Shown here piece after piece: positions 46,201-58,897 of a stretch of 64,000 nt of DNA (the first letter of the stretch is position 1; every line of letters starts with the position of its first letter). The position numbers and the translations under genes are program-made. Origin of the DNA: a virus; IMG/VR virus record IMGVR_UViG_3300044695_006747, positions 96,001 to 160,000 of that record; one strand, 5' to 3'. The notes under the pieces were generated by a model. It was not told the origin of the DNA and did no database searches. It saw only the letters and a list, made by a program, of their open reading frames with translations.

Positions 46201-46471
46201 ATCCTATGCGAGTTTTTTCTGTGGTAACAACAGCCTCTATCTCAGAAGAGTTAAAAGTTTCCGTACAATATGATCGACCATTCCACCAACCACACTTATA
46301 AGTAATAGAATGATTGGGGCCGATACTAACACAAATAATACTTCCATGAACATCATCTGTCAACTTAACTTTGGTTCCAATATTGTAAAATTCTAGAGAG
46401 TTTTTGCTCATTTGTTTTCCTTGTTCTTCAAAGGTTTTGAAATAAGTAGGAGCGATGGGATTCGAACCCAT
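46193..46471 (-). CDS. Hypothetical protein (true start probably MSKNSL, below the tRNA)
   Basis: Longest start lies inside tRNA-Leu; the internal Met is preferred. Confidence 0.6.
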   Translation of the reverse strand: MGSNPIAPTYFKTFEEQGKQMSKNSLEFYNIGTKVKLTDDVHGSIICVSIGPNHSITYKCGWWNGRSYCTETFNSSEIEAVVTTEKTRIGFV

Positions 46472-46519
46472 ACTTGCGAAATTTTAAGTCTCGTGTCTCT
46501 GCCGTTGGACTACGCTCCC
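46447..46519 (-). tRNA. trnL: tRNA-Leu(UAA)
   Basis: Acceptor GGGAGCG/CGCTCCT, D-loop CAACGGCA, anticodon arm CGAGA-CTTAAAA-TTTCG, T-arm ATGGG-TTCGAAT-CCCAT; no encoded CCA. Confidence 0.92.
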
Positions 46520-53278: not shown

Positions 53279-54523
53279 TTAGAATAATTCCTTAATAACT
53301 TTTCCACTATTTGCTATCTTCATAGGTCGCCCATTTTTAGAGGTAAAAGTAGTCTCAAGAGAAATACCTAAACTACTCAAAACGCTGGCCATTAAATCTT
53401 GAGAAGTATAGGGATCGGTAACTATCTCTTTTCCATCCTCATTTGTTTCTCCAACAACAACTCCACCCTTAAATCCTGCCCCGCCAACCACCACACTCCA
53501 ACTTCTGGCCCAATGATCACGACCACCATTACCATTAATATTTGGTGTGCGACCAAATTCTCCCATCCAAATAATAGCAGTATCTTGTAGCAGTCCACGA
53601 TCACTTAAATCTTCCACCAAAGCACTCATAGCCTTATCCAACTCTGGAAGTTTTTGATTTTCTAATGTGGCAAAAATACCAGCATGATTATCCCAACCAC
53701 CCATATCTACTTCTACGAATGGGACTCCCATTTCTACTAATCGTCGTGCCATTAAACAACCTCGACCAAAACCAGTGTTACCATATCGTTCTCTAACTTC
53801 TGCTGGTTCTTTTGATACTTTGAACGCTTCCATCTGTTTGCTAGTCATTAATTTAACTGTTTTATCAAGCACCTTGTTGTGATCTAGTGCTGATCCACCA
53901 CGAGATTCTTTGATAAACTTATTTTCGATTGCTGCTAACATTTCTAGTCTTTGAGATAATCTTGATGGATCAATTCCCATATTAAGATCACGAATATTAC
54001 CATTGCTATCCACAACAAATGGTGAATAAGTCATACCCAAAAATCCTGGGCCAACACTAGCACCACCAACACTAACAAACGGAGGAATTTCTAGTTCTGG
54101 AACTTGATCTATTAATTCGTGAGATATAACGCTACCATAACTAGGATAGTCTACTGTTGGACTAGGAACATAACCTGTGTGCATATAATAGCGACCTCTA
54201 GTATGGTCAGCCTCTCTTGTACTCATGCTTCGCACAATACTTAACTTATCCATATTTTTAGCGATCAATGGAAGATGCTCGCAGATTTGAACTCCATCAG
54301 CATTAGTATTGATTGGCTTAAATGGACCACCTGTTGGTGTTCCGGATTTTAAATCCCAAAGATCAATAGTGCTTGGGCCTCCACCCATCCATAAAAGTAT
54401 AGCGCTCTTATGTCTTTTCTTTAGATCAGAAGCATTTGCTAAAATAGTATTGGTAAAATTTGTAGCCGGAATAGTTAGCGATGATGCTGCGGCTAAATGA
54501 GATAAGAAATGTCGTCTGTTCAT
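53279..54523 (-). CDS. DUF1501-family protein with Tat signal
   Basis: MNRRHFL; LWMGGGPSTIDLWD; GCLMARRLVEMGV; GGWDNH; WMGEFGRTP; GRDHW. Confidence 0.9.
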   Translation of the reverse strand: MNRRHFLSHLAAASSLTIPATNFTNTILANASDLKKRHKSAILLWMGGGPSTIDLWDLKSGTPTGGPFKPINTNADGVQICEHLPLIAKNMDKLSIVRSMSTREADHTRGRYYMHTGYVPSPTVDYPSYGSVISHELIDQVPELEIPPFVSVGGASVGPGFLGMTYSPFVVDSNGNIRDLNMGIDPSRLSQRLEMLAAIENKFIKESRGGSALDHNKVLDKTVKLMTSKQMEAFKVSKEPAEVRERYGNTGFGRGCLMARRLVEMGVPFVEVDMGGWDNHAGIFATLENQKLPELDKAMSALVEDLSDRGLLQDTAIIWMGEFGRTPNINGNGGRDHWARSWSVVVGGAGFKGGVVVGETNEDGKEIVTDPYTSQDLMASVLSSLGISLETTFTSKNGRPMKIANSGKVIKELF

Positions 54524-56409
54524 ATTTTATCTATCTTTCTTTGTGGTTTAGGAATTAGTTTTGGTTTGGCTTTATCATCTGATTGATTATTATTACCTCC
54601 ACCACCATTGTTTGGTTTTGGTGGCTCCTCATAATCTTCATACCATTTATACGAGATTGGAGTATTAAGTTCTTCATTTGCTATTAATGCCCAAGGAGTA
54701 TCTGGATAATTGTCTACTACAAATCTTAAATATTTTTGAGATCCTTCATAACATTTTTTGAGTAAACTATTATTTAGATCGAAGTCCTTAGATGGCATTA
54801 GTATCCATATATTAGATTTTGGATCTTTCTTTTTCAAGCCGGTTTTCGCTTCTGCTAAAACCAGATTATAACTCTCTATTCTACATTTTGTAGATAGTAT
54901 ACGCCCCATAGCAAGAGCGTATGAAACTTTCCATCTATCTTCTAGTGTAGAATATGATGATTCGCCACTTAGTAATGTAGTGTAGATTTGATTAATTTTA
55001 GGTTCAAGTTTAGCAGAAAATCTTTGTGCCATATTTAGTTCATTTACAAAACTACCCTCATCAAATGCTTTGAATCGTAGTGTTTGTTCACCAGAAATAT
55101 TAAGGGGAATTGATGATGCTTGAACTAGTGCTTTTTTACTAGCATGAGACTGTGCTTCTTTATTTTGTATACCATACGATCTATAGTCTGGTCTATACTT
55201 AGTCATAATTTCGTGATCAAAAAATCTGGAAATGTATGATGATAGTGGGCTAATCTGTTTTTTATCTACTCTAGTATTTCCCCTATTAGGATGCACACTA
55301 AAATATAAGCCTCCAGTGTCCAAACAAAGTTTCGACAAAGCAAACGGGCCAAACCCACTGTCTAATGTTTCTTTATCAATTGGTAAACTATTAATATCTA
55401 AAATCATATCATATAAAGATTCTGGGCCTTGATTAATTTCTACCCATTTTTCAGTTTGATCGTACTTAGGATCAAATTCCACAAACTTAAATTGTGCTGT
55501 ATTTTTGCCAAATGGTGCGGGGTTTCCAACAACATAAATCATAGTCGCTTTCGATCTTGCTAGATTAGATACTACATCTAAATATTGAAAATCATCACCA
55601 ACTTCGTCTGTAAATACAATCACTAATAATCTGGAACCAAAAACGTATTCGGATTTGCATACTTCACCAATAGCAGAGAATGTATTTTCGATTCCGCTTT
55701 CATCTAGCACGATTGATTCTACTGCTGTCTTTAGTGTTGACGGATCATCTGTGAGTTGTCTTGTGATTTTGGTAAATTTTTGCCCAAAACTATAAATTCC
55801 ATGTTTAATATTATAAGTAGTATTAGCAAATTCTAGTTCTTGTAATATCTTTTGAAAACGATCAGCAATTAATTGTCTTTGATGACTCAAACTAACGCTG
55901 GCATCTAGTAGCCAAATAACGTTTGTGTCTTTAGATTCCCCGCTTTTGATAATCTCAACAGTCAATCTGTCCAATGCTCCACCACTAGATGATTGTGATG
56001 AAAATCCTGAACCTAAATTTGAAGAGACTCCAGATAATGTTTGACCAACTAAATCAGACGAAAATTCTGAGCCAACTTCTTCCATAGGTTCAACGGTTAA
56101 ATTAGAAGGAACATCAATATCATTAACAGATATAGATGAATCCTGTTGTTGTTCAACTATTACTTCTTCAGTTAACGAAGAATTTTTATCATCAAATGTG
56201 AAAGTTTCTGGAATATTAACAGGAATCTCAAAATCTACGTTTTCTTCAATGACGCTTGATGATGTTATTGTTAAAGGTTGTTCTGAGTCCAGTGCTTTTC
56301 CTATCATTAGTGATAGCAATAACAGAGCCATGCTGTTAATCACAAATGCTATACAATAGTGTTCTGTTGTTTCTGAGGATAACATATCCCTAATTTGACG
56401 AATCATCAT
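54520..56409 (-). CDS. Membrane-anchored vWA-domain protein (Planctomycete-like)
   Basis: N-terminal TM; MIDAS WLLDASVS; ENTF; FTDEVGDD; FGPFALSKL; TPWA. Confidence 0.75.
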   Translation of the reverse strand: MMIRQIRDMLSSETTEHYCIAFVINSMALLLLSLMIGKALDSEQPLTITSSSVIEENVDFEIPVNIPETFTFDDKNSSLTEEVIVEQQQDSSISVNDIDVPSNLTVEPMEEVGSEFSSDLVGQTLSGVSSNLGSGFSSQSSSGGALDRLTVEIIKSGESKDTNVIWLLDASVSLSHQRQLIADRFQKILQELEFANTTYNIKHGIYSFGQKFTKITRQLTDDPSTLKTAVESIVLDESGIENTFSAIGEVCKSEYVFGSRLLVIVFTDEVGDDFQYLDVVSNLARSKATMIYVVGNPAPFGKNTAQFKFVEFDPKYDQTEKWVEINQGPESLYDMILDINSLPIDKETLDSGFGPFALSKLCLDTGGLYFSVHPNRGNTRVDKKQISPLSSYISRFFDHEIMTKYRPDYRSYGIQNKEAQSHASKKALVQASSIPLNISGEQTLRFKAFDEGSFVNELNMAQRFSAKLEPKINQIYTTLLSGESSYSTLEDRWKVSYALAMGRILSTKCRIESYNLVLAEAKTGLKKKDPKSNIWILMPSKDFDLNNSLLKKCYEGSQKYLRFVVDNYPDTPWALIANEELNTPISYKWYEDYEEPPKPNNGGGGNNNQSDDKAKPKLIPKPQRKIDKI

Positions 56410-56749
56410 GTTTCCTATTTTTGGCCATAATTAAATAGTTTACAGCCTTAATTACACCATCCAGATCATCTCCTAATTTTCCTAGGCCGGTATTACATGG
56501 TTCACATAACCAACCTCTAAAACTGTCATCGTTATGATCGTGATCCAAACACCATTTGCGTGGAACTTTTCCACAACATTCGCAAAGTTCTGGTTTATTT
56601 GGTGCTTTTTTATGAAGTTTGCTTCTTACTTTGCTGTGTTTTCTAACACAACTTCTGCATCTACTATCAAGATTATCTTTGTACATACTGTGTTTGGGAA
56701 AACTTTTAGGATTTTTTCGTTTTCCACAATAAGTACAAATTTTTCTCAT
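56390..56749 (-). CDS. Endonuclease VII-like nuclease
   Basis: CECCG...LDHDH...RGWLCEPCNTGLG. Confidence 0.85.
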   Translation of the reverse strand: MRKICTYCGKRKNPKSFPKHSMYKDNLDSRCRSCVRKHSKVRSKLHKKAPNKPELCECCGKVPRKWCLDHDHNDDSFRGWLCEPCNTGLGKLGDDLDGVIKAVNYLIMAKNRKHDDSSN

Positions 56750-56865: not shown

Positions 56866-56882
56866 ATTATTCTTTCTTTAAG

Positions 56883-57236
56883 TGGAGGCGGGGGAAGTCG
56901 AATCCCCGTCTTGTGATAACTTTAATATAATCTCTACAAGTTTATTTTGTTCATAAATTTTGAGAAAGATTAAAGAACAAACAACATTCATCTTTCCGTA
57001 CCAACTAATCTCAGGCTAGAACCCGTTGGCTATTCTAGCAGCCGAAGGATTTTACGACAATCTTTTGAACGCTACCTTCATCGCTTTCTAAGATTGTTGC
57101 TGTTATTTAATTAAGCAGCAAGGGCTAACTGATTTGTGCCAGTTAAAGCATTTGGTAGATTTTTAAAGTGGCCTTTCCACCAACCACTACTTGCTAATTA
57201 TACCAAATTTTATCCAATCGATACCGTTACGCCCCC
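56883..57236 (-). ncRNA. ssrA: tmRNA
   Basis: Acceptor GGGGGCG/CGCCTCC with G3-U70 and A73; T-arm GGGGA-TTCGACT-TCCCC; tag ORF 57140-57111 GTNQLALAA* after TAACT. Confidence 0.93.
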
Positions 57237-57455: not shown

Positions 57456-58022
57456 TTGAATCGAATATGGTGTATGATACTTTATCAAAGTTATAACAAG
57501 GAGATTCGGCTTATGAGTCAATGCGTCAACTGTTTCAAAGAAACAAATAATCCAAAGTTTTGTTCCAGATCATGCGGTGTGTCATACAATAATCGAATAA
57601 AGCCTAAAAGAATTGCAACAAAAAAATATTTTAAGTGTTTATATTGTAAGAAGAAAACTCAATTTTATACTAATAATCCAAGAAAATATTGTTCAAAAAG
57701 TTGTAGGATAATACATAATAGAAATACTTCAGACAGTCTCATAGAAGTGAATGGGTTTGGCAGTGGTCATTATCATAATGCAACAATCAGAAAATATTTG
57801 ATAAGAAAACATGGGAATAACTGTATGATCTGCGGACAATCTGGAGACAATTGGAATGGTAAACCTATTACGCTTATTGTGGATCATATTGATGGAAAGT
57901 CCAACAATAATATGCTTGATAATCTCCGTATTGTTTGTCCAAACTGCGATTGTCAATTGCCTACTTATAAGGCTAAAAACAAAGGCAACAGTTCTAGATC
58001 ATATTTTATAGTTCAAAAATAA
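57456..58022 (+). mobile_element. Free-standing HNH homing endonuclease (probable start 57513)
   Basis: Two FCSRSC/YCSKSC Zn modules; CMICG; VDHIDG...NLRIVCPNC; RBS AAGGAG; inverted. Confidence 0.85.
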
Positions 58023-58023
58023 A

Positions 58024-58295
58024 TAGCGCGTGTTGGAGTCGAACCAACCTTTTGAATACCTTATCTTACCACTATAACTTTCGTTACCCAAATGGTTTGT
58101 GGTCTGGACTTTATCTTTACCATAACTTTAGTTTTAGGTACTGCCTGTCAAGTCTCTACACCTTACTATTTAATAGTCTTGGCTCGGTATTAGCATTTTA
58201 AAGCCTTCACCGAATTTAAGCAGTTCTACTCTACTGGTTTCCCAGTAGGCACTCATAATTTTAAGAGTATGTGCAACTACCGGCTGCAACGCGCC
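58024..58295 (-). tRNA. trnI: Intron-containing tRNA; spliced anticodon UAU (Ile)
   Basis: Exons 58295-58263 and 58064-58024; acceptor GGCGCGT/ACGCGCT, T-arm GTTGG-TTCGACT-CCAAC, anticodon arm ATACT-CTT^ATAA-GGTAT. Confidence 0.82.
58065..58262 (-). mobile_element. Group I intron (IC3-like, 198 nt, no ORF)
   Basis: P1 CTT/GAG with U-G, P2 GAAA loop, P3 CTGCTT/AGGCAG, P4 TTCGGT/ACCGAG, P6, P7 GAGACT/AGTCC, P8, P9 GAAA loop, terminal G, P10 TTAT/ATAA. Confidence 0.92.
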
Positions 58296-58326: not shown

Positions 58327-58355
58327 ATTATACCTTATCGACCAATCCCTGTCAA
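58327..58355 (-). promoter_or_regulatory. Sigma70-like promoter TTGACA-N17-TATAAT for the intron-tRNA
   Basis: ~30 nt upstream of tRNA 5' end; spacer contains TCGATA. Confidence 0.75.
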
Positions 58356-58897
58356 CCCTTGAGAAATTTTTCGTAATAGTGGCGATAAAAACCCATAATT
58401 ATGCCACTAGTTGTTCCAACATTTAAAGACCTAACACTTCCATAAGTAGGAATAGTTAAAACACAACTACAAGCCATAAGAATCTTTTCTGATAAACCAG
58501 CATTTTCTTCTCCAAAAATAAAAATTGGTTCATCAACATTGGAGAAATCAAAATTAAAAGGATCGAATGTAATATCTTTGTATTCTGGAATATTATTTTC
58601 AATAGCAATTAATGTACGACCACTTGACGAATGTGATTTAATAAAATCTTCTTCAGTTTTATGATGATACATTGGGGTATAGTGGTGGGTTCCTACACTA
58701 CCTCTTTTATCCCATTTCTTTTTGCCTACATAATGAACGCTACGAAATCCAAAAAAATTAGCATTACGAACCATAGTGCTAAGATTAAAATCTCCACTGA
58801 TATTAATCATTGCAACACTAGCGGGAATACTTTTATCCTGACAATATTTGGCAATATCTGGTATAGCCAAGTCTTTCAAACTATCAAGCACGTTCAT
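58352..58897 (-). CDS. SpoU/TrmH-family RNA 2'-O-methyltransferase
   Basis: DFNLSTMVRNA, FGEENAGLS, IPTYGSVRSLNV. Confidence 0.88.
   Translation of the reverse strand: MNVLDSLKDLAIPDIAKYCQDKSIPASVAMINISGDFNLSTMVRNANFFGFRSVHYVGKKKWDKRGSVGTHHYTPMYHHKTEEDFIKSHSSSGRTLIAIENNIPEYKDITFDPFNFDFSNVDEPIFIFGEENAGLSEKILMACSCVLTIPTYGSVRSLNVGTTSGIIMGFYRHYYEKFLKG

Follow-up and report, generated by a model that had tools for sequence, protein, structure and literature searches.

A compact group I intron of the tRNA-Leu(UAA) lineage in the anticodon loop of a phage tRNA-Ile(UAU) gene

The window analyzed here is a stretch of 64,000 nucleotides that spans bases 96001-160000 of a 186,823-bp IMG/VR virus record, which has direct terminal repeats and is rated complete. 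It carries a tRNA-Ile(UAU) gene that is split by a real group I intron and looks functional. The explanation we favor, at a probability of roughly 0.87, is that a compact group I intron without an ORF, belonging to the tRNA-Leu(UAA) lineage (IC3, 'Leu.3Ug'), sits between U34 and A35 of a functional phage tRNA-Ile(UAU); its splicing is predicted. The lineage of the intron and its mechanism are known; what is new is the host gene, a tRNA-Ile(UAU), and its occurrence in a phage.

The intron, its fold and the joined exons

The intron matches the Rfam covariance model RF00028 with 58.7 bits (cut-off 50), at an E-value of 3.6e-14 when the region is searched alone and 1.8e-15 in a whole-genome search, which is well beyond chance. 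A whole-window Rfam scan at gathering thresholds and with default filters did not pick it up. An earlier, sequence-only reading of this DNA had proposed the Rfam comparison as a check and had drawn all core group I helices on the minus strand, with a U-G splice pair and a terminal G at position 58065; each of these elements was recovered in place (Table 1). P1 consists of three pairs only, between exon CUU and intron GAG, with a U58263.G58254 wobble at the 5' splice site. P7 pairs GAGACU (58156-58151) with AGUCC (58110-58106), and P10 joins intron UUAU to AUAA of the 3' exon. Both the U.G at the 5' splice site and the terminal G are in register with those of 45 distinct related introns.

Table 1. 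Features of the split tRNA gene and its surroundings, numbered by position in the window
Feature	Position	Strand	Remarks
5' exon of tRNA-Ile(UAU)	58263..58295	-	33 nt: acceptor 5' strand, D arm, anticodon stem 5' strand, C32-U33-U34
Group I intron	58065..58262	-	198 nt without an ORF; complete set P1-P10; ends in G58065, the terminal (omega) G
Internal guide sequence	58252..58258	-	UUAU 58258-58255 (P10 strand) and GAG 58254-58252 (P1 strand)
Catalytic-core pseudoknot, P7 5' to P7 3' strand	58106..58156	-	Encloses P3 3' strand, P8 and J8/7
3' exon of tRNA-Ile(UAU)	58024..58064	-	41 nt, starts A35-U36-A37-A38; discriminator A; no CCA encoded
Sigma-70-type promoter, TTGACA-17 nt-TATAAT	58327..58355	-	~30 nt upstream of the tRNA 5' end
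SpoU-family RNA 2'-O-methyltransferase gene	58352..58897	-	Directly upstream; PF00588, E 4.5e-24
Phage tmRNA gene	56880..57236	-	Downstream, same strand as the tRNA; RF00023, 117.5 bits
Free-standing HNH homing-endonuclease gene	57456..58022	+	188 aa; phrog_1271, E 6e-22

The fold was assessed in a structural alignment of 32 introns, comprising this one and 31 relatives. RNAalifold recovered the anticodon stem, P1, P2, P3, P4, P5, P6, P8, P9 and two P9 sub-helices, and P7 was added to this structure as a pseudoknot before pairs were counted. Paired cells amount to 97.7%, versus 29-41% in controls with slid pairing partners; both sides have changed at 34 of the 57 pairs, and the covariation score is 0.48, compared with 0.05-0.10 for the slid controls. 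Covariation backs the core helices P3-P9, including the P3/P7 pseudoknot, within which the five P7 pairs are invariant across all 32 introns. The minimum free energy of the single sequence is also better than that of shuffled sequences (z = -2.6).

When the exons are joined, ARAGORN calls a tRNA-Ile(tat) with the stem AUACU/GGUAU and the loop CUUAUAA; beyond AUAA, the 3' exon supplies the 3' strand of the anticodon stem, the variable region, the T arm and the 3' strand of the acceptor. The unspliced gene gives no ARAGORN call, with or without the intron option. The cloverleaf is unusual when set against canonical geometry, with its two-nucleotide 8-9 linker and 4-5 nt variable loop: it features a G1.U72 pair, one nucleotide between acceptor and D arm, two between D arm and anticodon arm (position 26), and 7 nt in the variable region. 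At least 19 contigs keep this same odd form.

The junction was located by comparison with related loci, of which 53 were fetched from phages with the SpoU-family methyltransferase gene as a handle. Approximately 40 of them carry an uninterrupted tRNA-Ile(tat) at the same distance after the SpoU gene, usually followed by a tmRNA, and the intron core is absent from all 53. The nearest intronless alleles (L129, L130, L134 and L171) are almost identical to the joined exons and run contiguously through CTCTTATAAGG, which is exactly the predicted junction, split as CTCTT^ATAAGG. No other split leaves a U ahead of the 5' site and lets the intron end in G; junctions shifted by one base were rejected, having no U at -1 and no G as the final intron base. 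The intron is thereby placed, by sequence comparison, between anticodon-loop positions 34 and 35. The sequence-only reading had anticipated much of this, namely the CUUAUAA loop on an ATACT/GGTAT stem, the junction CUU^AUAA, a host that is a UAU-anticodon tRNA in a phage, and the risk that standard tRNA scans overlook the gene. All four hold, and the intronless alleles that it had suggested looking for exist at the same locus in the roughly 40 related contigs, where they mark the host as a conserved phage tRNA-Ile(UAU).

An exact search of IMG/VR with the T arm and acceptor strand of the 3' exon returned zero matches. The differences between the exons and the L129-type alleles are compensatory, affecting acceptor pair 3:70 and one T-stem pair, so selection still acts on the interrupted gene as a tRNA. 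We also considered a tRNA-Leu(UAA) with a point mutation in its anticodon. This was rejected on account of the short variable arm of the exons and the existence of intronless Ile(UAU) orthologs.

These data suggest a conventional splicing pathway, predicted here to be autocatalytic. Transcription would start from the sigma-70 consensus promoter, and the intron would fold into P2-P9 with the P3/P7 pseudoknot. P1 would arise from C32-U33-U34 and intron GAG, its U34.G wobble marking the 5' splice site, where an external guanosine would attack after U34. G58065 would then enter the G-binding site while the guide UUAU pairs with AUAA as P10, and ligation of the exons would yield a 74-nt tRNA with the anticodon loop CUUAUAA. 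The mature tRNA would read AUA.

Relatives of the intron and its change of host gene

To catalogue the family, BLAST against phage genomes was combined with one IMG/VR motif scan (at least 120 contigs). The nearest relatives, 80-83% identical over ~197 nt (full length), sit at CUU^AAAA in phage tRNA-Leu(UAA). Among the scan matches listed, most likewise lie at CUU^AAAA of tRNA-Leu(UAA), as judged by eye and from the conserved 3' end. A few of the listed matches are in Thr(UGU), Lys(UUU), Arg(UCU) or CAU tRNAs, and a minority are in protein-coding genes, including capsid genes of pelagiphages. The family also occurs in the tRNA-Leu(UAA) of the 735-kb huge phage LR756501. In a tree of 51 introns, built on 200 columns, this intron groups with two other Ile(UAU) introns (SH-aLRT 99), and that group nests inside the clade of Leu introns (SH-aLRT 93). 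Unlike a standard member of the trnL-type lineage, it is hosted not by tRNA-Leu(UAA) but by tRNA-Ile(UAU).

The change of host is accompanied by a change in the guide. P1 is constant in all these introns, combining exon CUU with intron GAG and placing a U.G at the splice site, while the four bases that precede GAG change between Leu, Thr, Lys and Ile hosts in step with the first bases of the 3' exon (L038 was omitted from this comparison). In Leu hosts the guide is AUUU or AAUU and the 3' exon AAAA, giving 2-3 P10 pairs; in the Thr host AUAC faces GUAA (3 pairs), in the Lys host AUAG faces UUAA (3 pairs), and in the Ile host of this window UUAU faces AUAA (4 pairs). Such co-variation of guide and 3' exon supports both the P10 pairing and its re-matching: UUAU-GAG has replaced AUUU-GAG, so that P10 pairs again with the new 3' exon AUAA. 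A trnL-type intron, retargeted with a re-matched P10 of TTAT/ATAA, is what had been proposed from the sequence alone, and the identity to phage tRNA-Leu(UAA) introns, the nesting within the Leu clade and the tracking of 3' exons by the guide bear out both parts of that proposal. The locus thus offers a natural case of retargeting from CUU^AAAA to CUU^AUAA with a change of guide, for which intron-free alleles are available for comparison.

The cyanobacterial/plastid-type tRNA-Leu(UAA) intron (Leu.3Ug) shares with this intron the U34/A35 insertion after CUU and a CUU/GAG P1 with U.G. The core blocks GUAGAGACU and AGUCCAGACCAC are common to this intron and the Leu.3Ug seed alignment, as are a GAAA loop on the P9 hairpin, an end of the ...GGUAAG kind and the lack of an ORF. 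The differences lie in the host, here a short-variable-arm UAU tRNA and not a class II tRNA-Leu; in the guide, here UUAU to match AUAA and not AUUU or AAUU; and in the phage genome and the length, 198 nt being at the small end of the family. A second point of comparison is the intron of the Azoarcus sp. BH72 pre-tRNA-Ile(CAU) (Ile2.5Ug), a minimal IC3 ribozyme of ~200 nt with a 3-bp P1. It resembles the present intron in its size, in its 3-bp P1 and in residing in an AUA-decoding tRNA-Ile; however, it is inserted after position 36 rather than 34, its host has the anticodon CAU (which needs lysidine) rather than UAU, and it lies on a bacterial chromosome rather than in a phage. At 198 nt, the intron described here is a candidate minimal ribozyme and a possible reagent.

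Bacterial tRNAs host group I introns in more settings than the fMet, Ile(CAU) and Arg(CCU) genes listed by the sequence-only reading, a list that is out of date: Williams 2020 (bioRxiv 10.1101/2020.01.27.920355) raises the number from 4 to 21. These include Arg, Lys, Thr and Ser settings in bacteria at the same 34/35 site (Arg.3Ug, Lys.3Ug, Thr.3Ug and Ser.3Ug), in which the same family has moved into other U34 tRNAs with loops starting CUU. The phage Thr and Lys cases found here likewise have a matching guide. The subgroup assignment of the present intron, IC3, would follow from its homology to Leu.3Ug introns, which are IC3 in the same work. Phages fall outside that survey, and its 26 seed names include no tRNA-Ile setting with a UAU anticodon. 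As of 2014, all known phage introns were in protein-coding genes (Hausner et al. 2014; PMC3984707), and Devoto et al. (2019) described 'enigmatic' tRNA introns in Lak megaphages without giving an intron class. In the literature we searched, no group I intron is described from a phage tRNA or from any tRNA-Ile(UAU). Although group I introns in the anticodon loops of tRNAs are a classic subject, those of phage tRNAs represent a gap in the literature, given that many of the at least 120 scanned contigs carry this family, mostly in tRNA-Leu(UAA).

Further pattern scans revealed a CUU^AUAA-split tRNA-Ile(UAU) in eight more viral contigs, on three tRNA-Ile backbones. L184, L208 and L223 belong to the tRNA family of this window, L221, L222 and L224 have a second backbone, and a third backbone is seen in L228 and L231, whose introns measure 242 and 923 nt. 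Three contigs from bacterial genome bins (MAGs; L234, L247 and L248) also carry a CUU^AUAA-split tRNA-Ile(UAU). Phage-family or homing-endonuclease genes are present on the two MAG contigs that were checked, which may therefore be of phage origin. The sequence-only reading knew of no case of this kind; that stands for the literature, in which we found no publication, but not for sequence data, with the same setting in eight viral and three MAG contigs. An exact 15-mer across the 3' splice site gave 38 matches, of which only those in L184 and L208 were real.

The intron of L184 is 83% identical to the present one over 198 columns. This sister intron (shared by L184, L208 and L223) differs by compensatory changes in P2, P5, P6, P9a and P9b, which argues that the ribozyme fold has been kept during residence in tRNA-Ile. 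A single origin of all Ile(UAU) introns was tentatively rejected: the tree, built on only 200 columns, spreads the Ile introns over two or more positions among the Leu introns and calls for a minimum of two host switches between Leu and Ile. The move into tRNA-Ile thus probably happened more than once, a tentative conclusion given the short alignment.

Several observations on the wider family were made in passing. Run on the relatives, ARAGORN often misplaced the splice site, and its calls of 'tRNA-Tyr(ata)', 'SeC' and 'Stop' are tRNA-Leu(UAA) by eye. Some intron-bearing phage tRNAs with a UAA anticodon have a short variable region and lack the long arm of bacterial tRNA-Leu (L017, L029, L061, L069, L090, L097, L115, L116, L122 and L126). 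In the cultured jumbo Agrobacterium phage Atu_ph07 (L003; MF403008.1, ~112900-113250), the tRNA-Leu(UAA) is split by a 278-nt group I intron, which is unannotated in GenBank and overlapped by a 'hypothetical protein' CDS. Cultured phages of the Atu_ph07 kind, with related introns, would make a convenient bench system. In Pelagibacter phage HTVC120P (L004) and in uvDeep1-GF2-KM23-C739 (L006), the capsid gene is annotated as two CDSs with an intron-core-like stretch between them, so a group I intron probably interrupts the capsid gene in both.

The neighboring HNH gene and possible homing

The HNH gene is convergent with the tRNA, and 2 nt separate its stop codon from the 3' end of the tRNA. In many relatives, HNH homologs are found at the same place and in the same orientation, 0-5 nt from the 3' end of tRNA-Ile, and across related contigs the presence of HNH goes with the intron and with the tRNA allele type. 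Moreover, the same HNH family occurs inside or beside related tRNA-Leu introns, e.g. in L005. This proximity raises a different account of why the intron is here: it may persist mainly as the partner of the adjacent free-standing HNH, by collaborative homing. The endonuclease would cleave this type of tRNA-Ile allele when no intron is present, in or close to the anticodon loop; the intron, by disrupting that site, would shield the genome that carries it and be copied together with the HNH gene into cut genomes. We regard it as possible, although on present evidence doubtful, that the ORF-less intron and the antisense HNH constitute such a unit, acting on the tRNA gene of co-infecting relatives. 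A homing intron must splice anyway, so homing would add to a functional split tRNA-Ile(UAU) rather than replace it.

The distribution of the HNH gene speaks on both sides. For this anticodon-arm type, 19 intronless contigs lack HNH and all three intron-bearing ones (this one, L184 and L208) have it, with L184 and L208 repeating the arrangement of an ORF-less intron beside an HNH. The HNH-positive intronless relatives nearly all have different tRNA-Ile types, as co-conversion predicts, and the 2-nt spacing here and the HNH genes in or next to tRNA-Leu introns point the same way. However, this is a correlation only, among related contigs, two of which (L184 and L208) hardly differ in this region. 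In L142 the anticodon arm is similar and the intron absent, yet the contig carries an HNH (51% identical), and the HNH is missing from L136, L143 and L144 even though their allele type also occurs in HNH-positive contigs. If homing did operate, the intron and HNH would spread together and overwrite the neighboring tRNA allele, which would explain five tRNA-Ile types at one locus in otherwise near-identical phages.

Known systems provide partial precedents. As in collaborative homing (PMC3984707), the intron lacks an ORF and a free-standing HNH gene directly adjoins the gene that the intron interrupts, but that gene is here a tRNA rather than a protein gene, and the HNH is on the opposite strand. 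SegB of T4, like the HNH here, is a free-standing endonuclease next to phage tRNA genes, and the abstract of the SegB report describes preferred inheritance of the tRNA region (PMC2330249). SegB is a GIY-YIG enzyme with no intron involved, in contrast to the HNH and intron found here.

The locus itself is variable. At least five tRNA-Ile(UAU) sequence types share it (L127-L171), flanked by SpoU genes that are 73-98% identical, and in L166 and L167 the HNH is reduced to a 31-aa remnant.

AUA decoding and the surrounding genome

The genome has a G+C content of 34% and encodes RIIA, ribonucleotide reductase and DNA ligase, and thus belongs to a large T4-like phage. ARAGORN finds 11 tRNAs in the whole genome, seven of them with U34 (Glu UUC, Leu UAA, Gly UCC, Lys UUU, Gln UUG, Thr UGU and Arg UCU), and no Ile tRNA in the whole genome other than the split gene. 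AUA is used at 35.6 per 1000 codons and accounts for 1819 of the 4141 Ile codons (44%) in 156 long ORFs, making it as frequent as AUU in this phage. A tRNA of the phage's own for AUA is in keeping with its other tRNAs, and were the gene missed, as happens with standard tools, the phage would seem to have no AUA decoder at all. Its UAU anticodon, its discriminator A73 and the heavy AUA usage lead us to infer that the mature tRNA would be charged with isoleucine, read AUA and serve in translation; its putative isoleucine identity is read from the anticodon. A UAU anticodon, if unmodified, could misread AUG too.

The SpoU gene is a conserved neighbor of tRNA-Ile(UAU), both here and in ~40 related contigs among loci L127-L179. 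Its product bears a weak likeness to RlmB, TrmH and TrmL, with all scores under the respective cut-offs, and it might act on tRNA-Ile(UAU), e.g. at the wobble U. The promoter ahead of the tRNA matches the consensus at 12 of 12 positions and is the top-scoring site of the region. The tmRNA has a promoter-like site of its own at 57275-57248 (11 of 12 consensus matches); ARAGORN overlooked the tmRNA of this genome, though it calls the gene in relatives (with tags such as GTNQLALAA).

This setting bears on two further readings, both of which we hold to be very unlikely. In the first, splicing acts as a control point, such that the rate of folding or splicing, or the levels of GTP or Mg2+, would set the amount of AUA-reading tRNA during infection. 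The anticodon does arise only on splicing, and the gene has a strong promoter of its own and translation-related neighbors (the SpoU methyltransferase and the tmRNA), but most close relatives are intronless at the same locus, and no regulatory element was seen. The second, in which the intron has lost splicing and is decaying, leaving this copy of tRNA-Ile a pseudogene, could appeal to the presence of the intron in only a small minority of related contigs, but is scarcely credible given that all conserved core positions and helices are intact, with P7 the same as in the 31 relatives and P10 perfectly matched, that the exon changes are compensatory and not disruptive, that the sister Ile intron has drifted in a compensatory manner, that the promoter is a perfect consensus, and that this is the sole Ile tRNA of a genome with heavy AUA use.

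The usual home of this group I intron family is tRNA-Leu(UAA). The phage's own tRNA-Leu(UAA) gene, at 46447-46519 (-), is intronless even with a CUUAAAA loop. An endonuclease VII gene (56390-56749 (-)), which closely follows the tmRNA, is kept in L184 and L208. Farther along, the gene of a DUF1501 protein (53279-54523 (-), E 3e-106), for which no PHROG family was matched, overlaps an adjacent VWA-domain gene (629 aa, 54520-56409 (-)). Outside the window, ARAGORN reports an odd tRNA-Ser with the anticodon ACT at genome positions 181792-181881, and at 186396-186473 a tRNA without a determined anticodon, which becomes Val(gac) with a 7-nt intron if introns are allowed.
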